Source: Candidatus Shapirobacteria bacterium
GTDB taxonomy: Bacteria > Patescibacteriota > Microgenomatia > UBA12405
Assembly (NCBI GenBank): GCA_030698565.1
Contig: JAUYJS010000005.1
Span: 154,497-218,496, forward strand
Direction of reading: 5' to 3'
Length of the DNA stretch: 64,000 bases
Shown: one piece after another, positions 4,928 to 59,853 of the stretch
How the letters are laid out: the number at the start of each line of letters is the position of its first letter
Position numbering within the stretch: position 1 is the first letter of the stretch
Notes under the pieces: generated by a model
Told to the model about the DNA's origin: nothing
Databases searched by the model: none
Seen by the model: the letters and a program-made list of their open reading frames with translations, nothing else
Made by a program: the position numbers and the translations under genes

Positions 4928-6331
4928 ATGAATAAAAAAACTAAAATTGTCGCTACTATTGGACCCGCCTCGGAAAACGGGGAGGTAATTGAAAAATTAA
5001 TTTTGGCTGGTGTGAATTTGTTTAGGTTTAATTTAAAACACAATGATTTTGATTGGCATCAAAATACTATAAAAAAAGTTAGGGAAATAGCTAGAAAACT
5101 GGATTACAATATTGGTACGATTGCTGATTTACAAGGTCCAGAAGTTAGAATAGAAACTTTTGAGGGCAAGGAAGTTGAAATTAAAGAGGATGAAAGTCTT
5201 TTTATTGGACCGACTACTAACAGTAATAAGACCATTACTCTTAATCCAAAAGAAGTAATTTCTAGTTTAGAAGTTGGCGATACGGCTTTTATAGATGACG
5301 GGGATTTGGAATTACAAATAATAGGTAGCAAAAATGGAGTCGTGGAGGCAAAAGTTGAGATAGATTACATAATTAAAAATAGAAAAAGTTTAAATATACT
5401 AAAGAAAACAATTGATTTACCTCTTTTGTCGGAACGTGATCTTGTAGCTTTGGAAATGATCCCTAAAATTGACCCAGATTATATTGCTTTATCGTTTGTT
5501 AGAACTAAAGAAGATATCGAAACTCTAAGATCAAAATTAAAAGAAATTGGAGCAACTTCTAAAATAATAGCTAAAATTGAAAATTCATCGGCTATCAATA
5601 ACCTTGAAGAAATAATTAAGGTTACTGATGCTGTAATGGTAGCTCGAGGAGATTTGGGAGTAGAAGTGGCAATGGGAGAATTGGCTTTTTGGCAAAAAAG
5701 AATAATTGATTTAAGTAGAAAATATAATAAGCCAGTAATTGTTGCTACACAAATGATGCAATCGATGGTCCATAATTATCATCCAACTAGGGCTGAAGCG
5801 ACTGATGTAGCCAATGCTATTTTTGATGGTACAGATGCTTTGATGTTGTCAGAAGAAACTGCCACTGGGGATCATCCATTTAAGGTAATTAAAGAAATGA
5901 ATAAGATTGCAGAATTTTGTGAAAAAAATGGTGTGGCAAAATCAATTGAACTTAAATTAGACAGTACGACGGAAGTTTTGGTGAGGGCTGCGGCTAATAT
6001 TATAAAAAACTCAGGTCAATTTCCGATAAAAGCCATAATCGTCTTCACTGAATCGGGGAATACAGCAAGAATTTTATCTAAATATAGATTTAAAATTCCT
6101 ATTGTTGCTGTTACAAACAATTCTGATACGGTTAGATCATTGGCACTTTCTTATGGAGTAATGCCGTTAATACAGGAATTTCCAGAAAATCAATTTAGAA
6201 TGGAAGATCCAATTTTCAAAAAACTTATAAACTTTGAGTTTATTGAAAAAGACGATAATGTTTTGGTGATTCACGGCAATAACTGGATGACAGCGGGCCA
6301 AACCAGTGATATTAGCTTGATTAAGGTCTAA
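4928..6331 (+). CDS. pyk: pyruvate kinase
   Basis: KIVATIGPAS…NLFRFNLKHN…MVARGDLG…; full-length 467 aa. Confidence 0.85.
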   Translation: MNKKTKIVATIGPASENGEVIEKLILAGVNLFRFNLKHNDFDWHQNTIKKVREIARKLDYNIGTIADLQGPEVRIETFEGKEVEIKEDESLFIGPTTNSNKTITLNPKEVISSLEVGDTAFIDDGDLELQIIGSKNGVVEAKVEIDYIIKNRKSLNILKKTIDLPLLSERDLVALEMIPKIDPDYIALSFVRTKEDIETLRSKLKEIGATSKIIAKIENSSAINNLEEIIKVTDAVMVARGDLGVEVAMGELAFWQKRIIDLSRKYNKPVIVATQMMQSMVHNYHPTRAEATDVANAIFDGTDALMLSEETATGDHPFKVIKEMNKIAEFCEKNGVAKSIELKLDSTTEVLVRAAANIIKNSGQFPIKAIIVFTESGNTARILSKYRFKIPIVAVTNNSDTVRSLALSYGVMPLIQEFPENQFRMEDPIFKKLINFEFIEKDDNVLVIHGNNWMTAGQTSDISLIKV

Positions 6332-18481: not shown

Positions 18482-20290
18482 TTATTGTTGTGCGTAACTC
18501 CCCTGGCTGGGATTAAGCAATTTAACAAAATCACTAGCTTTCATAATTACCGAATTTGTTTTTGAACCAGCATTAAAGGCGATTTCTTTATTTTGCAACA
18601 AGTTCGTATCAACATAAACTGAAGTATTAAATAAATTACCAAAGGGTGGGACTCCCCCAATTTCAGTTCCGGTAATTTTCTTTACTTCTTCGGGATTAGC
18701 CATGCGCAAATCTTTGAAACCAAATTGTTTTTTGAATTCATTATTGTTTAGTTTATCGGAGGCAGATAGAACCGCCAGAATTGGGTTGTTGTCAGCAAAC
18801 ATCACTAAGGCTTTGGCTCCTTGATTAATATTGGTTCCACGAACTTTAGCGGCCTCTTCAGATGTGCTTGTGGCAATATGAGTTAGCTCCTTAAAATTAA
18901 CTTGTTTTTCTTTTAGGTAATTAATTAATTTTTCATGAAGATCAATATTATTATTAATATTTTTTCTACCAGTTAATGACAGACGACTATCTATACGCTC
19001 CATATCTCGAGGAAAAAGACTGGCTTGACGAACATTGTCGAGCTTTAAGATATTTTGAGTAATACGTTCTAAACCAATAGCAAAACCACCTTCTGGGGGC
19101 ATGCCATATTTAAAGGCTTGGCCGTAAGGTGTTTCAAAATCTTTTGGATCTTGACCACGTGATTTTATTTTGGCTTGTAATTCATTGTAATCATGAATTC
19201 TTTGGCCACCACTAATCCATTCAACCCCCCGACCGATTAAATCAAAAGTCAATGTTTCTTCTGGATTTTCTGGGTTAGAGTAAGAATACCAGGCGCGCTT
19301 TTTGGTGTAAAAATGGGTAATAAATACAAGATCACTGCCAAACTCTTCTAGAGACCAACGACAAATTTCTCTTTCGCCTTCAGGGTCCATGTCGAGTTCG
19401 TTTCGAACGTCACGGCCAGAACGCTTGTAAATTAATTCAAGAGCGTCTTTGAGTTTAATAATAGGAGTAGTCTCGACTGTTTTGGGAATAGTAACACCGT
19501 ACTCATCTAGAATATTTTGATGTTTTTCGGAAATAGCTTTAAACACGACCTTGACTACGCTGTCAGCCATTTTCATTAGCTCGGTCCAATTGTCTATAAA
19601 ACCCATTTCCATGTCTAAACTAACGTACTCCGTTAAATGTCGAGTTGTTACTGATGGTTCGGCTCTGTATGCATGAGCGACAGTAAATACACGTTCAAAA
19701 ATTGATGTTAAAACTTGCTTATATAGTTGAGGACTTTGGGCTAAGTAAGCCTTGTAGTCAAAATAATCGACAGAAAATACCTCGGAACCACCTTCGGTTG
19801 ACCCAGCAACTAAAGTTGGAACAAATATCTCAATAAAATCATTTTTGGTTAAATAATTTCTAAAAGCTTCTACAATTGTGGCTTGAATTTTAAAAACGTC
19901 TTGAACTTTTTGGTTGCGTAACGAAGCCGAACGATGATCCAATAAAACCGGGAGTGTTACATTTAAGTCTGGCTGATGAATATCAAAAGGTAAATCGTGA
20001 GATTCAGATAAAATTTTTAGATCTTCAACTTCAATTTCAATTTTTCCAGAAATAATTTTATCGTTAAAATACTTAGAGTCGCGATCACGAACCGTGCCAG
20101 TTATTTCCACAACAAATTCTTCCTTAAGAGAGCCAATATTTTTATCACCGACTACCTGGACAATTCCTGAGCGGTCGCGAATGTCAGCAAAAACTAATTT
20201 GCCGTAACTTCGGACGCTATTTACCCATCCTTTAATAGTAATTTCTTTGCCAACACATGCTGGCGTTTCTCTTATAAGTGTTCTTTGCAT
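18482..20290 (-). CDS. aspS: class IIb aspartyl(/asparaginyl)-tRNA synthetase with C-terminal YbaK/ProX-type deacylase domain
   Basis: N-terminal OB anticodon-binding domain (VGKEITIKGWVNSVRSYGKLVFADIRDRSG) and class II core (motif-3-like GGFAIGLERI). An extra ~150-aa C-terminus has EEAAKVRG…KALVM…LAVLSASDKL…EIGGVPPFG…AFNAGS, which matches the YbaK deacylase pattern. Confidence 0.7.
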   Translation of the reverse strand: MQRTLIRETPACVGKEITIKGWVNSVRSYGKLVFADIRDRSGIVQVVGDKNIGSLKEEFVVEITGTVRDRDSKYFNDKIISGKIEIEVEDLKILSESHDLPFDIHQPDLNVTLPVLLDHRSASLRNQKVQDVFKIQATIVEAFRNYLTKNDFIEIFVPTLVAGSTEGGSEVFSVDYFDYKAYLAQSPQLYKQVLTSIFERVFTVAHAYRAEPSVTTRHLTEYVSLDMEMGFIDNWTELMKMADSVVKVVFKAISEKHQNILDEYGVTIPKTVETTPIIKLKDALELIYKRSGRDVRNELDMDPEGEREICRWSLEEFGSDLVFITHFYTKKRAWYSYSNPENPEETLTFDLIGRGVEWISGGQRIHDYNELQAKIKSRGQDPKDFETPYGQAFKYGMPPEGGFAIGLERITQNILKLDNVRQASLFPRDMERIDSRLSLTGRKNINNNIDLHEKLINYLKEKQVNFKELTHIATSTSEEAAKVRGTNINQGAKALVMFADNNPILAVLSASDKLNNNEFKKQFGFKDLRMANPEEVKKITGTEIGGVPPFGNLFNTSVYVDTNLLQNKEIAFNAGSKTNSVIMKASDFVKLLNPSQGSYAQQ

Positions 20291-20311
20291 ATGTTTATTT
20301 TATATATAAAT

Positions 20312-20510
20312 AACAAAAAAATCCCGACACGGTGCCAGGATACGAAAAATAAATCTATTTTTCGTGCTCCGTTTTCCTCCCAGCCATAGCCGGATTTGTG
20401 ACACACGTTGGCGCAATTACGGGCGCTTCCCGAAGGGTTCTAATCATCGACTGTCGTCAACTTTCTTCCCTTAGCATCGGCAGTGTTGACTGCGTCATCG
20501 CTTTTGAATT
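20312..20510 (-). promoter_or_regulatory. candidate T-box riboswitch leader (Asp specifier) upstream of aspS
   Basis: ~190-nt GC-rich structured leader in an AT-rich genome. The Stem-I-like helix GUCAAC…GUUGAC has a 3'-side internal loop GACAG (GAC = Asp codon followed by a purine). The T-box-like AUCCUGGCACCGUG (UGGNACC core, N=C, complementary to discriminator G) sits in the 5' arm of the terminator. Confidence 0.4.
20314..20341 (-). terminator. intrinsic terminator/attenuator hairpin + U7 immediately upstream of aspS start
   Basis: Minus strand AUCCUGGCA-CCG-UGUCGGGAU (9 bp including 2 GU pairs) followed by UUUUUUU, about 25 nt before the aspS ATG. Confidence 0.5.
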
Positions 20511-20523
20511 ACTTTATTTTACT

Positions 20524-22182
20524 TCAGTTTGATAAATTGTCAAACAGAATTTCTTTGATTATCAACTGTGGGGTTTTGACACCATTCCAGACATTAATGT
20601 CTAATCTGGCGACAATATTGACTTGGGAGCCAATTTTTATTTGGGAATCAAGGTCTCCTTTTTTAAAGGCGATGGCCTCTGTTGGTTGAGTGCGACCATA
20701 AGAGTCGCCTAATTTTAATTTTAAATGATCACTATTGGCACCAATTAAACGTTTTTGAATTACAGACAAATTTTTAAAGATAAATATAGGCTCTTGGTTA
20801 TCGAAACCAAATGGTTCTAACTTTTTAATTACTTTATAGTTTTTGGTGTTTACGGCTGATAACTTCATTTCGGCGTCAACGTTTAAAATAGGTTGAAGCT
20901 TTAATGTTTTTAATTTTTCGTTAATTATCTGAGTAATGGTCTTTTTGAATTTACTGATTTTTTTGGTTTCAATGGAAAAACCGGCAGCTTCTGAATGACC
21001 GCCGACATCGACAAGTAAATTTGAACATTGCCGAAGAGCATCGATAATATTTAATTCTTTAATCGACCGACAAGATCCTTTGGATATTTCTGGAGTAACA
21101 CCAATAACAATCGACGGTAAATAATATTTTTCGGTTAAACGACCGGCGATTAAACCAATAATTCCTGGCTGAAAAGATTCGTCTTTTACAAAAATTAGCT
21201 TATCTTTATTGTCTAGAACTAGCTTTTGAGCAGTATCGATACCGTTTTGTTGGAGCAGTTGTCGATTTTGGTTGTGTTCATTAGAAATTTGAGCGTATTT
21301 CGAAGCTTGGATAGCATTGCTGCTGCACAATAACCTGAGGGCGTCAGTAGGATTTGACATACGACCAACAGCATTGATCCTAGGACCTAAAACAAACCCT
21401 AAATCAAAAGCAGACAAGAGGTCTTGTTTTAGACTATTTATTTCCATTAATTTTTTGAGACCGGGGTTGGGATTTAACCTGAGATTTAAAAGTCCATGGA
21501 CAACCAAGTTTCGATTAATGTCAACTAAAGGCATACAGTCAGTAACTGTGCCTAGCGCAGCTAAACCGATATCGGCATTGTCATCAAATTTCGAAGCTAG
21601 AAGCCAGGAAATAGCCGAGCCGGATATTTTAGTGGAGTGGACAATGGCAATTGCATTTGGAGGTTCTGTCAAAGGTAAGTGGTGGTCGGTAATAATCACA
21701 TCTATATTTTTTCTATTTAATTTGTCAATTTCTGAGTGGGCAACAATGCCGTTATCAACCGTAATAATTAAATTAAAATCCGTTTTCTTTTCGCTTTGAA
21801 AATTATAGACAGATTTAGCTTTGATGCCATATCCATCTTTTTCCCTGTCTGGAACAAAAGGCAATACTTTTGCACCAATTTTGGTGAGTGATTGCCAAAG
21901 AATCGCCGTGGCAGTAATACCATCAGCATCATAATCACCATAAATTAGGATATTTTCATTCTTGAGAACCGCATCTTTGATTCTTTTTACTGCTTTATCT
22001 AGATTGGATGTTGAGACAGAAAAATCCTGATTTTTCAACTCTTTTGGATGAACTGGATTTAAAAAAATATCCACATCTTTGTTTTTTATTTGCCGATTAT
22101 TCAAAAGTAATTCTAAGAATTCTATTGGGTTTGTTTGATTATCAACAATAGTAGCTGATTTAATTTTTATTTTGGGAACCAT
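20524..22182 (-). CDS. recJ: single-stranded-DNA-specific exonuclease RecJ
   Basis: DHH motifs: ILIYGDYDADGITA, VIITDHH, and a DHHA1-like C-terminal region. Confidence 0.85.
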   Translation of the reverse strand: MVPKIKIKSATIVDNQTNPIEFLELLLNNRQIKNKDVDIFLNPVHPKELKNQDFSVSTSNLDKAVKRIKDAVLKNENILIYGDYDADGITATAILWQSLTKIGAKVLPFVPDREKDGYGIKAKSVYNFQSEKKTDFNLIITVDNGIVAHSEIDKLNRKNIDVIITDHHLPLTEPPNAIAIVHSTKISGSAISWLLASKFDDNADIGLAALGTVTDCMPLVDINRNLVVHGLLNLRLNPNPGLKKLMEINSLKQDLLSAFDLGFVLGPRINAVGRMSNPTDALRLLCSSNAIQASKYAQISNEHNQNRQLLQQNGIDTAQKLVLDNKDKLIFVKDESFQPGIIGLIAGRLTEKYYLPSIVIGVTPEISKGSCRSIKELNIIDALRQCSNLLVDVGGHSEAAGFSIETKKISKFKKTITQIINEKLKTLKLQPILNVDAEMKLSAVNTKNYKVIKKLEPFGFDNQEPIFIFKNLSVIQKRLIGANSDHLKLKLGDSYGRTQPTEAIAFKKGDLDSQIKIGSQVNIVARLDINVWNGVKTPQLIIKEILFDNLSN

Positions 22183-22326: not shown

Positions 22327-22596
22327 ATGGCAAAAAAATTATTCATAGGTAATCTGGATTTCACGGTGACAGATGAGCAGTTAACGAGTTTATTTTCCGT
22401 TTACGGCCAAGTCGTATCGGTAAATATTGTTCAAGATAAATTCACTCACAGAAGCAAAGGATTTGCTTTTGTAGAATTTGCCAATGAAGAGGATGCCGTC
22501 AAAGCTATGTCCGAATTAGACGGAACTGAACAATCGGGAAGGAACATTAATGTCAAAGAGGCATTGCCTCGTCCTGAAAGACCTGATCAAGGGTAA
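22327..22596 (+). CDS. RRM-type RNA-binding protein
   Basis: RNP-2 LFIGNL and RNP-1 KGFAFVEF; 89 aa. Confidence 0.8.
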   Translation: MAKKLFIGNLDFTVTDEQLTSLFSVYGQVVSVNIVQDKFTHRSKGFAFVEFANEEDAVKAMSELDGTEQSGRNINVKEALPRPERPDQG

Positions 22597-22616: not shown

Positions 22617-22645
22617 AAACCTCCCGGTAATCCGGGAGGTTTTTG
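22617..22645 (+). terminator. rho-independent terminator after the RRM-protein gene
   Basis: aaaCCUCCCGG-uaau-CCGGGAGGUUUUU. Confidence 0.6.
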
Positions 22646-22660
22646 GTTTACAATACTTTT

Positions 22661-24004
22661 ATGAACAAAAATATTTCGATCCCCAAAGAGGTGATCAATA
22701 TAATTAATAAATTCCAAAAGAATGGAACGGAGATTTATATCGTCGGAGGAGCTAGTCGAGATCTTATCATGGACAGAAAAGTAAATGATTGGGATTTTAC
22801 CACCAATATAACTCCTGAAGAAGTTAAAAAAATATTTCCAAATACTTTTTATAATAATAATTTTGGCACGACTAGTATCGTAAATAAGGATAAAGAGATT
22901 TTTGAAGTAACTACTTTTAGAACTGAAAGGGGTTATTCTGATAGCCGGCACCCAGATGAAATTAAATGGGGTAAAACTTTGGAAGAAGATTTACAAAGAA
23001 GAGATTTTACTATTAATGCCATTGCTATAAAAATAAATTCAAATAATCAAGATGTTGAAATAATTGATTTGTTTGGTGGCCAAAAGGATATAGAACAAAA
23101 AAAAATTAGAACTGTCGGTAATCCAGATGAGAGGTTTTCGGAAGATGCTTTAAGACTGATGCGGGCAGTTAGAATCGCGACTCAAATTGGATTTAATTTA
23201 GAAAAAGAGACACTGGAATCAATTAAAAGAAACTCTTCTTTAATTAATAAAGTGGCTGGTGAAAGAATTAGAGATGAATTGTTTAAGATTCTTTTGGCAG
23301 AAAAACCTAGTCGAGGTATTGAGTTATTGCGAGATTCGGAACTTTTGAAAGAAATAATACCAGAACTTTTGTTGGGGATAGATTTTGCCCAAAAGGGCCA
23401 CCATATAGATGATGTTTGGACACATAATCTGAAAACATTAGATAATTGTTTAAGTTCAAATCCAATTACCCGGTTGGCTTGTTTACTGCACGATGTGGCT
23501 AAACCCATTGTGGCAATGGGAAGCGGTGAAGCCAGAACATTTCATAATCATGAAATTGTTGGGTCAAGAATTGCTACAAGGTTTGGCAAAAGATTGAGAT
23601 TATCTAACAAAGAACTGGATTTACTTTTTATATTAGTTCGCCGACATATGTTTACCTCAGAAGAAGGTCAAACAGACAAGGCAGTTAGAAGATTTATAAA
23701 AAATGTTACGCCTGAATACATAGATGAAATGCTTAGTTTAAGACGAGCAGACAGGGTTGGCAGTGGAGCCAGGGAAACTAGCTGGAGATTGGAACTATTT
23801 AAAAATAGAGTCGTTGAAGTGCAAAAGCAACCATTTTCGATCAAAGATTTGAAAGTTGATGGTAAAGATGTCATGGAAATACTGGATATTAAACCTAGTC
23901 GAAAAGTAGGCGAAGTTTTAGAAAATATTTTCAAAGAAGTTGAAGATAATCCAGAACTAAATCAGAGAGAAATTCTGCTAGAAAAAATAAAAGGATTTAA
24001 GTAA
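22661..24004 (+). CDS. cca: CCA-adding tRNA nucleotidyltransferase with HD domain
   Basis: IYIVGGASRDLIMDRKVNDWDFTT (Pol-β head) and LLHDVAKP (HD). ATG at 22661 preferred over the TTG at 22643, which overlaps the terminator. Confidence 0.8.
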   Translation: MNKNISIPKEVINIINKFQKNGTEIYIVGGASRDLIMDRKVNDWDFTTNITPEEVKKIFPNTFYNNNFGTTSIVNKDKEIFEVTTFRTERGYSDSRHPDEIKWGKTLEEDLQRRDFTINAIAIKINSNNQDVEIIDLFGGQKDIEQKKIRTVGNPDERFSEDALRLMRAVRIATQIGFNLEKETLESIKRNSSLINKVAGERIRDELFKILLAEKPSRGIELLRDSELLKEIIPELLLGIDFAQKGHHIDDVWTHNLKTLDNCLSSNPITRLACLLHDVAKPIVAMGSGEARTFHNHEIVGSRIATRFGKRLRLSNKELDLLFILVRRHMFTSEEGQTDKAVRRFIKNVTPEYIDEMLSLRRADRVGSGARETSWRLELFKNRVVEVQKQPFSIKDLKVDGKDVMEILDIKPSRKVGEVLENIFKEVEDNPELNQREILLEKIKGFK

Positions 24005-28992: not shown

Positions 28993-29018
28993 ATATTGTA
29001 AAATACAATTAACTCAAA

Positions 29019-29284
29019 GAAATCGAAGGATCTAACTCCGATTTATCGGGGAGGAAAGTCCGGACCGCAAAAAGCACAGAATTCTGCAGAGCAGAACAAG
29101 ATGTAAGTTTTGGGCAATGCTACAGTGACGAATAGTCCCGATACCTAAAAGGGTCGGGGTGAAGTGAAACGAGCATCCTTCTGGCGGAAATCTCAAGTAG
29201 GGGCGTTTGTATCTAGCTTTTGAGAGCCTCAGGTAGAGAGAATAGATTGATGGTCCTTAAACAGAATCCGGCTTATCGATTTCT
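29019..29284 (+). ncRNA. rnpB: RNase P RNA (bacterial type, reduced)
   Basis: GGAGGAAAGUCCGGAC (CR-I/P4 5' strand), GGGGUGAAGUGAAACG (CR-IV-like), ACAGAAUCCGGCUUAUCG (CR-V/P4 3' strand). P1 closes as aaaucga…ucgauuu. Confidence 0.75.
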
Positions 29285-58837: not shown

Positions 58838-59110
58838 TTATGTCTTTTCAACAACTCTTTTAACAACACGTCCATGACCCTTAAAGGTTCTGGTAGGAGA
58901 AAATTCGCCTAAGCGATGTCCGACCATATCTTCAGTTACATAAACATTAATAAATTTTTTTCCATTATGAACTTCAAAATTTTTGCCGACGAAATCAGGT
59001 GATATTTGACTTCTTCGAGCATATGTTTTGATTGATCCAGCTGTTTGGGCTTGAACTTTTTTTATAAGTTTGGCATCAATATATGGACCTTTTTTGGAAC
59101 TTCTGGACAT
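58838..59110 (-). CDS. rpsS: 30S ribosomal protein S19
   Basis: [12 protein letters not shown]…GHGR…. Confidence 0.9.
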
Positions 59111-59853
59111 TATTTGCGTCGTTTAACAATTAATCTATTGGAGGTATTTTTGCGTTTGCGAGTTCTTTTACCCATGGCTGGTTTACCCCATGGAGTTTTT
59201 GGATTCATACCAATTGAACTTCGACCTTCACCACCGCCGTGTGGATGGGAGTGAGGATTTTGAGCAACTCCTCGGACAGAAGGACGGATACCACGATGTC
59301 GTGAATCTCCGGCTTTAACTAATTTTTGGTTAATATGATCAACATTGCTAACTTGGCCAATGGTTGCTTTGGAGTCGGCATCAAAAATTCTGATTTCTCC
59401 GGAAGGAAGTTTAATAATAGCTTTCTTGTTGTCGATGCTTTGAACATAGGCAGCAGCTCCGGCGGTTTTAATTACTTTAGCTGGTTGGCCTTTTTTGAAT
59501 GCAAGAGCATGAATCGGAATACCAATTGGAATATTTTTGATTAATAAACAATTGCCTTCTTTGATTGGAGCGGCATCTGTGGAAATTAAAACATCATCAA
59601 CTTTGAGATTGGCTGTGGCCAAAATATAAGATTTACTGCCGTCTTCATAATGAAGAAGGGCAATATTGGCGGTTCGATTTGGATCGTATTCAATGGCGGC
59701 TACCTTGGCTTTAATATCGATTTTGTCTCTTTTCCAATCAATTTCTCTTAGAAATCTTTTTTGTTCTCCACCGCGATGTCGGATAGAAACATGGCCTTGA
59801 GAATCTCGTCCGCTAGTTTTTTTCTTAATAGTTAATAATGATTTGACTGCCAT
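59110..59853 (-). CDS. rplB: 50S ribosomal protein L2 (short, 247 aa)
   Basis: …[19 protein letters not shown]… and C-terminal HPHGGGEGR. Confidence 0.9.

Follow-up and report, generated by a model that had tools for sequence, protein, structure and literature searches.

What defines T-box riboswitches is that they read a tRNA at its two ends: they recognise the anticodon and, through a UGGN sequence of which the U must pair with A76 in every T-box, also the uncharged NCCA end. In Clostridium acetobutylicum, tRNA-dependent asparagine formation is reportedly under Asn-specific T-box control (Saad et al. 2012, J Biol Chem), where an AAC specifier is said to govern a non-discriminating AspRS and the signal to be uncharged tRNA-Asn, not tRNA-Asp. 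That system differs from the leader described here in its canonical long-Stem-I T-boxes with UGGN.

T-boxes with a short Stem I carry their specifier in the apical loop, with a purine after the codon and C preferred at its third position, and class II T-boxes likewise have no distal Stem I platform (PMC7583486). The class II, ultrashort-Stem-I T-boxes of actinobacterial ileS genes (M. tuberculosis, N. farcinica) resemble our leader in their apical specifier ending in C and followed by a purine, their short Stem I devoid of an elbow-binding platform, the purine string of their Stem II S-turn, and their IIA/B pseudoknot with its F-box. They differ in being translational, in keeping a UGGN bulge that pairs with the tRNA NCCA end and in belonging to Actinobacteria, whereas the leader reported here has an intrinsic terminator, no conserved UGGN, an expression platform of three strands (a, b and a', defined below) and a CPR host.

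The recJ-aspS spacer and its homologues

We analysed a 64 kb stretch of a Candidatus Shapirobacteria contig (hereafter the window), in which recJ (20524-22182, minus strand; stop codon 20526-20524) and aspS (ATG at 20290) are separated by a spacer of 233 nt on the minus strand (20291-20523). As the earlier note had remarked, this spacer is rich in G+C, with 0.50-0.53 over 20350-20499 as compared with about 0.30-0.40 in its flanks. It is bordered by the following features:

18482..20290, minus strand: aspS(-ybaK), the putatively regulated gene; 602 aa, NF003483 at 457 bits, YbaK_EbsC over residues 456-596
20516..20543, minus strand: sigma-70-like promoter of the leader; TTGACA (20543-20538), 16 nt, TAAAAT (20521-20516), 11/12 matches

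Profile matches identify the aspS product as an aspartate--tRNA(Asn) ligase of the archaeal type that carries a YbaK-like editing domain at its C-terminus, and the closest genomes for this protein are Candidatus Shapirobacteria and Woesebacteria MAGs. The promoter-like TTGACA-16-TAAAAT overlaps the recJ stop codon.

Homologous leaders were collected through both protein and DNA. A protein-guided scan of species-representative genomes gave four loci with a clearly homologous leader (L001-L004), and a DNA pattern drawn from two conserved blocks gave 19 metagenome loci, with five chance matches to the 21-base pattern dropped: L054, and L044, L045, L047 and L048, which are copies of one eukaryote-like contig. 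The latter four were considered as a divergent variant in front of another gene and rejected, their ORFs being eukaryote-like (bHLH-like peptide) with no bacterial genes. Exact-protein look-ups added the leader-bearing L062, L063, L067, L069, L072 and L076, along with four loci without any leader (L061, L068, L073, L074) and two with a different leader (L065, L075). The distinct leaders of the window's type number 21; twelve leaders were retrieved by the DNA pattern, which required strands a and b, and 10 were found through protein instead. The closest relative, L067, is 92% identical at the protein level, the AspRS-YbaK orthologues behind L065 and L075 are 58-59% identical, and orthologues 78-79% identical lack the leader. 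The leader precedes not only AspRS-YbaK fusions, but also a plain 437-aa AspRS (L056) and AspRS of the bacterial type (L043, L049 and L059, the last scoring 697 bits for NF001750).

Comparative sequence evidence supports the spacer as a real, conserved and putatively regulatory RNA, the 5' leader of aspS. A covariance model (R2) built from 16 leaders of other genomes, and leaving out the window, L056, L067 and L076, matches the window at 20359-20506(-) with 61 bits (E 4.9e-12), the spacer being its sole match of note in the 64 kb. Two alignments, a MAFFT alignment of 18 leaders and a model-fitted one of 22 sequences, agree in their results: 92-93% of cells are paired (92.3% with MAFFT) and 15-18 of the 27 pairs show double changes (15 with MAFFT), values that none of 500 shuffles reached, and sliding the 3' partner by 1-3 columns lowers pairing to about 36%. 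Stem I, lower Stem II, IIA and the IIB pseudoknot each covary separately, while the thermodynamic z-score of the leader is modest (-1.83). The comparison of aspS leaders that had been suggested as a check on the earlier note yields covariation, but not conservation of the specifier and T-box sequence that the note had named. The suggested RF00230 scan returned no T-box match in the window, and no other Rfam family was found at the site either, whether the cut-off was the gathering threshold of 93 bits, E<=0.5 for the whole 64 kb or E<=10 for a 421-nt segment with the spacer.

The terminator hairpin at the 3' end of the spacer might alternatively be a plain recJ terminator. It starts 183 nt past the recJ stop codon, with about 190 nt of conserved structure standing before it, and the leader accompanies aspS also at loci without recJ, in addition to having a promoter-like site of its own. 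Upstream genes differ between loci (an acetyltransferase gene precedes the leader in L069), and most homologous leaders have a TAAAAT/TATAAT -10-like box 6-15 nt before their K-turn; the leader therefore belongs to aspS, not to recJ.

The decoding module of the 5' half

At the level of predicted structure, the homologues establish that the 5' half of the leader (20502-20410) keeps a T-box decoding module, made up of a K-turn, an ultrashort Stem I, Stem II and a IIA/B pseudoknot:

20473..20502, minus strand: ultrashort Stem I; K-turn-like base AGCGAUGAC (20502-20494) opposite CGAUGCU (20479-20473)
20487-20485, minus strand: AAC (Asn codon), the candidate specifier, in the apical Stem I loop; 3' purine A at 20484
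20433..20472, minus strand: Stem II; lower helix AAGGG (20472-20468) / CCCUU (20437-20433)
20410..20432, minus strand: Stem IIA/B pseudoknot; IIA CGGG-AAGCG-CCCG (20432-20420), F-box-like CCCGUAA

A putative K-turn of the GA-motif type is present at the base of Stem I (AGCGAUGA...CGAUGCU in the window, AGCG-AUU-GA-GGUG / CACC-GA-UGCU as family consensus). Its strand AGCGAUGA agrees with the Rfam T-box consensus agCgaUGA, and it is to agCgaUGA...GAGcu that Rfam aligns the equivalent segments of L056 and L065. Above the K-turn, Stem I is reduced to a hairpin of 4-5 bp with a loop of 6-7 nt (4 bp in the window, GCAG-UCAACA-CUGC, 20493-20480), in which the distal elbow-binding platform, consisting of the AG bulge and distal loop, is absent. 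The stem covaries (GCAG/CUGC, GGUG/CACC, GUGG/CCAC, UCCGA/UCGGA), and the apical loop, UCAACA in the window, reads CCAACAC, CUAACA or CAAACA elsewhere, with AACA invariant in the 18 aligned leaders and L076, that is, in 19/19 leaders that have Stem I on the contig. The conserved specifier-like triplet is hence an Asn codon followed by A, at odds with the Asp specificity claimed in the earlier note; AAC would be read by tRNA-Asn, and the candidate codon with its purine matches the tRNA specificity expected of the aspS product, which is annotated as a ligase loading aspartate onto tRNA-Asn.

The Asp specifier had been placed in a GAC-A internal loop of a long GUCAAC/GUUGAC helix. Both strings are present (20490-20485 and 20461-20456), but they pair in no homologue and the helix was rejected: GUCAAC comprises the apical loop of Stem I plus one stem base, GUUGAC supplies the 5' side of Stem II's upper hairpin, and the two halves belong to different covarying helices. 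The proposed specifier, GACA (20455-20452), instead caps Stem II, where the sequence is GAUA in L067 and GAAA, GCAA or UUA elsewhere. That upper hairpin (UUGAC-GACA-GUCGA, 20460-20447) is separated from the lower helix, which covaries at 4/5 pairs, by a purine-rich, S-turn-like internal loop (AAGAAAG, 20467-20461, opposite UGAUUAGAA, 20446-20438). In the leader alignment the cap is free to vary (GACA, GAUA, GAAA, GCAA, UUA), while GAAGAA and UAGA of Stem II are invariant and CCGUAA is conserved. In the pseudoknot, the 3' strand of IIB, GCGC(C) (20414-20410), is predicted to pair with the loop of IIA, and IIA and IIB both covary (GCUA/UAGC, ACUU/GAGU, GAAC/GUUC, GAAU/AUUC, GCUUU/AAAGC).

These observations bear on the reading of the leader as an evolutionary relic, in which a decayed T-box would no longer bind tRNA and the hairpin with its U7 would serve as recJ terminator or constitutive attenuator. 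Such decay would account for the dispensability of the leader, orthologues of 78-79% identity doing without it, and for the loss of the canonical acceptor-sensing element. It is nevertheless very improbable in view of compensatory changes in four helices, the pseudoknot included, and of invariant AACA, GAAGAA and UAGA across leaders whose proteins are 58-92% identical, as well as of the promoter-like site, the linkage to aspS instead of recJ and the distance of 183 nt between recJ stop codon and terminator.

Strands a and b and the terminator

We show here that the 3' half of the leader (20407-20314) is organised as a three-strand switch, and not as a canonical Stem III followed by a UGGN-bulge antiterminator. 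Its elements are:

20399..20407, minus strand: strand a, CGUGUGUCA; core GUGUGUC invariant
20380..20393, minus strand: lineage-specific hairpin CCGGC-UAUG-GCUGG, inserted in the tip of Px
20363..20371, minus strand: strand b, CGGAGCACG; family form (C)GGAGCAC, GAGCNC invariant
20342..20365, minus strand: 'Stem III-prime', an A/U-rich hairpin ACGAAAAAUA-GAUU-UAUUUUUCGU between b and the terminator
20314..20341, minus strand: intrinsic terminator; 9-bp hairpin AUCCUGGCA-CCG-UGUCGGGAU (20341-20321), then U7 (20320-20314)

Strand a directly follows IIB and has the family form (A)ACGUGUGUC(R), with GUGUGUC invariant in 21/21 leaders; the GAGCNC core of strand b is invariant as well, and both statements include the 10 leaders that did not come from the DNA pattern. 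Pairing of a with b gives the hairpin Px, which several leaders show in the minimum-energy fold predicted for their full length and whose core consists of U.G, G.A and U.G. Because strands a and b never vary, this core is without covariation support; the tip of Px varies yet stays paired (GU/AC, GC/GC, GA/UC, GCC/GGU, or a GNRA cap), which therefore supports the hairpin. The CCGGC-UAUG-GCUGG insertion occurs only in the window and L067, with other hairpins at the same place in L051, L056 and L076 and a loop of 4-10 nt in most leaders. Downstream of b, Stem III-prime, the lowest 3 bp of which compete with the base of Px, is found in most leaders with varying sequence and is absent in L003.

The terminator stands as the earlier note had described it, a 9-bp hairpin whose U7 ends 23 nt before the ATG. 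A hairpin and U-run are found in every leader except L063, with unrelated stem sequences; in L063, which has no terminator, a hairpin covers the AUG and its 5' arm GGCAUA is complementary to a. Within the window's terminator lies a' (UGGCAC, 20337-20332), complementary to a. Across the family, the pairing between a and the terminator apex amounts to 5-8 bp in a register that shifts with the terminator sequence, and the a:apex duplex has a mean energy of -9.85 kcal/mol versus -6.5 for shuffled terminators (p<=0.03 in 9/16 leaders; in 4/16 the complementarity is no better than in shuffles). If the terminator 3' arm is kept from pairing, a is joined to the apex in the minimum-energy fold of nearly every leader, and GGAG/GGA of b pairs with CUCC/UCC just upstream of the apex, a b:b' contact that covaries once (UGGAG:CUCCA in L001 versus CGGAG:CUCCG elsewhere). 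In the window the corresponding antiterminator (GUGUCA:UGGCAC plus GGA:UCC) is also the unconstrained minimum-energy fold. Folding thus predicts mutually exclusive terminator and antiterminator states, mediated by an a:b lock and an a:apex antiterminator, with a predicted energy gap of about 1-8 kcal/mol between the two; as in the window the prediction slightly favours the antiterminator state over Px together with the terminator, regulation would have to be kinetic.

The sequence AUCCUGGCACCGUG (20341-20328), which overlaps a', had been read in the earlier note as the T-box sequence of a canonical Asp T-box, its UGGC pairing with the GCCA end of tRNA-Asp in competition with the terminator, under a GAC-A specifier in a Stem I loop. 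The sequence is there, and its UGGCACC (20337-20331) equals the bulge consensus UGGNACC, lies directly after a hairpin and has a counterpart, GGGUGGCACCGCG, in canonical relatives, but it is not conserved: among the 21 leaders UGGCACC occurs in this module of the window only, relatives reading CCCGGCACA, CCGCACAC or CCGACAC at the site and most having no UGG anywhere in the 3' half. L067 reads CGGCACC, so that a U.G pair of the terminator stem is replaced by C-G and not even the nearest relative keeps the U needed for pairing with A76; on this evidence and that of the rest of the family, UGGCACC was rejected as a functional bulge. Moreover, the motif belongs to the terminator's 5' arm and loop, just before the U-tract and not in a bulge, whereas its canonical place is upstream of the terminator. 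Added to the missing Rfam T-box match in the window, the unconserved GUCAAC/GUUGAC helix and the substitution of GAC-A (GAUA in L067; GAAA, GCAA or UUA in others), this leaves the canonical Asp T-box with next to no credence.

Other roles for the 3' strands were also tried and rejected. Pairing of a with the specifier loop (GUGU:ACAC) as a self-inhibitor reaches at most 4 bp and is lost in leaders with an ACAA loop. A degenerate UGGN in b or in the Px loop would have to be CGGA, UAGU or UGUC, each of which mismatches CCA, and the Px loop varies freely. Mimicry of the 3' half of tRNA-Asn by the 3' module, suggested by a resemblance to E. coli tRNA-Asn, was set aside because most leaders are without the needed hairpin. 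A tRNA-Asn gene, sought for complementarity to a and b, was found neither on the window nor on the homologue loci examined.

A model for the switch and its relation to T-boxes

Taken as a whole, the leader is probably a transcription attenuator of the aspS(-ybaK) mRNA, a T-box-derived three-strand switch that would respond to tRNA-Asn. In this model, a (GUGUGUC) would pair with b (GAGCAC) to form Px and leave the terminator free to form, or would pair with the terminator apex and 5' arm (UGGCAC in the window), with GGA:UCC in addition, to form an antiterminator and allow readthrough into aspS. Binding of tRNA-Asn (anticodon GUU) to the decoding module would favour the antiterminator, so that an accumulation of free tRNA-Asn would lead to more non-discriminating AspRS being made. 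Selection on the decoding module remains strong in leaders devoid of a canonical discriminator, and the module must consequently act through the a/b/apex switch.

The invariance of a and b amid covarying helices suggests sequence-specific recognition by a factor in trans, and hence a dual-input or protein-controlled attenuator in which AspRS, another factor or an ion would bind Px and lock it in the OFF state (autoregulation in the case of AspRS), while the T-box module would bind tRNA-Asn separately. Synthetase-bound mRNAs have precedents in the E. coli thrS operator and in yeast AspRS, which binds its own mRNA. The weakly paired core of Px contains U-GUC-R, the anticodon-loop sequence of tRNA-Asp, but both predicted states place this GUC in an irregular helix instead of an anticodon-like loop of 7 nt. 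The leader precedes two non-orthologous types of AspRS that share only tRNA substrates and anticodon recognition, and in L056 a single decoding module is followed by two terminators in succession, as if the first answered a different signal; the decoding module, however, is still selected in leaders without the canonical discriminator and must consequently be coupled to the switch. On balance we consider control of Px by a protein or other ligand unlikely, and retain the tRNA-Asn-responsive switch as the working model.

Descent from T-boxes is supported by the relatives of the leader. L065 and L075 are like the window in their ultrashort Stem I, Stem II and IIA/B and in the gene family they precede (AspRS with or without YbaK), and differ in having GAC in the apical loop and, after IIA/B, a standard Stem III, the AGGGUGGCACCGCGA antiterminator with its UGGCACC, and a terminator. 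L056 is a hybrid, with AAC in the loop, the new module with its own terminator, and then a standard antiterminator and terminator; its AAC loop coexists with a canonical UGGC bulge, which implies that the tRNA has G73, the base expected in tRNA-Asn. The IIA/B segments of L065, L075 and L056 are nearly identical to that of the window (CGGGCGCGCCCGUAA versus CGGGAAGCGCCCGUAA). A model of the window's family (R1) matches the canonical leader L065 with 27.7 bits (E 4e-4), and Rfam aligns L056 and L065 to its T-box model with 38.3 and 44.9 bits, both below the gathering threshold of 93 bits. In these Rfam alignments 73-76 model positions are deleted (73 distal positions of Stem I in L056), and blocks shared with the window map to the T-box Stem I base, Stem II, IIA and CCGUUA; in L056 specifically, the Stem I base maps to AGC...GAGCU, Stem II to GAGAGAAGAAAG...UUAGAACUCUC, and IIA with the F-box to CGGAAGCGCCCGUAA.

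With canonical RF00230 leaders the window shares its position in the 5' leader of an aaRS gene, the K-turn (AGCGAUGA), Stem II, IIA/B and the exclusive terminator/antiterminator folds, and its predicted antiterminator has the topology of that of a T-box: an outer helix, a 5' bulge, an inner helix with an insertion, and a continuous 3' strand. It differs in having neither the long Stem I with its distal platform nor a T-box sequence, in the extra locking hairpin Px, and in a 5' bulge that, unlike that of canonical T-boxes, varies in sequence and length and carries no UGGN. Because the acceptor-pairing element is absent and the leader goes undetected by the Rfam model, it is set apart from regular members of the T-box family. 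Given the absence of acceptor-end pairing, a switch blind to tRNA charging would be unprecedented, and we raise only tentatively the possibility of a new class of tRNA-responsive riboswitch, in which decoding of tRNA-Asn would drive antitermination without pairing to the tRNA 3' end. Such an RNA may detect free tRNA-Asn through nothing but the anticodon, such as tRNA-Asn whose anticodon AspRS has left unoccupied, or charging may be read by a mechanism not yet described.

The suggestion that an aaRS gene in a CPR-like lineage is under T-box control survives as regards T-box descent, although the details of a canonical Asp T-box do not, and the family places T-box-type control in CPR/Patescibacteria. 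In the literature searched, we found no paper joining T-box riboswitches with CPR/Patescibacteria, which is no proof of novelty. Canonical and derived CPR forms both lie far below the Rfam threshold and are for that reason missed by standard annotation. In the canonical CPR relatives an intrinsic terminator goes together with an ultrashort Stem I, which on kinetic grounds is considered an unusual combination (PMC7583486). An AAC specifier is in keeping with the indirect Asn-tRNA(Asn) pathway that genomes as reduced as these are expected to use. Finally, in this well-conserved natural family the anticodon-reading half of a T-box is kept under selection and the acceptor-reading half has been replaced; the family therefore poses the question whether regulation by a T-box can do without the sensing of charging, or whether charging is sensed in another way.

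Distribution of the leader and the AspRS fusion

Among AspRS orthologues, the conserved T-box-derived leader 5' of aspS shows a patchy distribution: it is present in locus L076 despite an AspRS just 58% identical to that of the window, and is absent from L061, L068, L073, L074 and L005-L010, where the orthologues are 78-79% identical to the window protein and the recJ-to-aspS gap measures about 0-45 nt. The window AspRS itself is a fusion protein:

Window 18482-20290, minus strand, residues 456-596: YbaK/Cys-tRNA(Pro)-deacylase-like editing domain, fused to AspRS

Shapirobacteria and Woesebacteria together contribute over 50 protein clusters with the same PF00152 and PF04073 fusion, and near-relative AspRS proteins of 440-460 aa are without the YbaK-like domain.

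Search specificity and other window features

The covariance model of the leader family, R2, also gave a weak match that overlaps the 3' end of an ORF, at 59092-59194 on the minus strand of the window (16.2 bits, E 0.07); this match is probably noise. Four loci (L044, L045, L047 and L048) were rejected as chance matches to the 21-base search pattern: they are metagenome contigs that have in common one eukaryote-like sequence, with a bHLH-like ORF and zero bacterial genes, a case showing that pattern matches need a check of their context. Three further features were recorded in the window:

22327-22596, plus strand: gene for a small RRM-type RNA-binding regulator (NF058537, 103 bits)
22643-24004, plus strand: CCA-adding enzyme gene
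29018-29284, plus strand: RNase P RNA (top match RF00373, an archaeal Rfam model, 130 bits; lower-scoring overlapping matches of its clan left out)

The regulator gene adjoins the CCA-adding enzyme gene and is divergently oriented relative to recJ. The RNase P RNA lies in a bacterial (CPR) window, yet its best-fitting model is archaeal.

Canonical, hybrid and variant leaders

Two loci from CPR genomes carry canonical T-boxes:

L065, 951-1160: canonical T-box
L075, about 170-470: canonical T-box

In both, an intrinsic terminator goes with an ultrashort Stem I whose apical loop is UUUGUGACC; the Rfam gathering score is 93, and L065 reaches just 44.9 bits. The sole AspRS-relevant codon in their apical loop is GAC, followed by C rather than a purine. 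A hybrid leader precedes the gene for a 437-aa AspRS in L056, and runs from an AAC decoding module through the a/b module (the strand-and-terminator switch of the leader's 3' half) and a canonical antiterminator to a second terminator:

L056, 5662-5966: hybrid leader
5846-5869: first terminator, belonging to the a/b module
5896-5925: canonical antiterminator CAGGG-UGGCACC-GCGC...CCCUG
5919-5966: second terminator

Finally, a variant of the leader is found in L063:

L063, 1027-1205: variant leader with a start-codon-covering hairpin, GCAUAAUUAUAU...AUAUUGUUAUGC

Because this hairpin over the start codon takes the place of the terminator, the sequence suggests that control in L063 would be exerted at translation rather than transcription.
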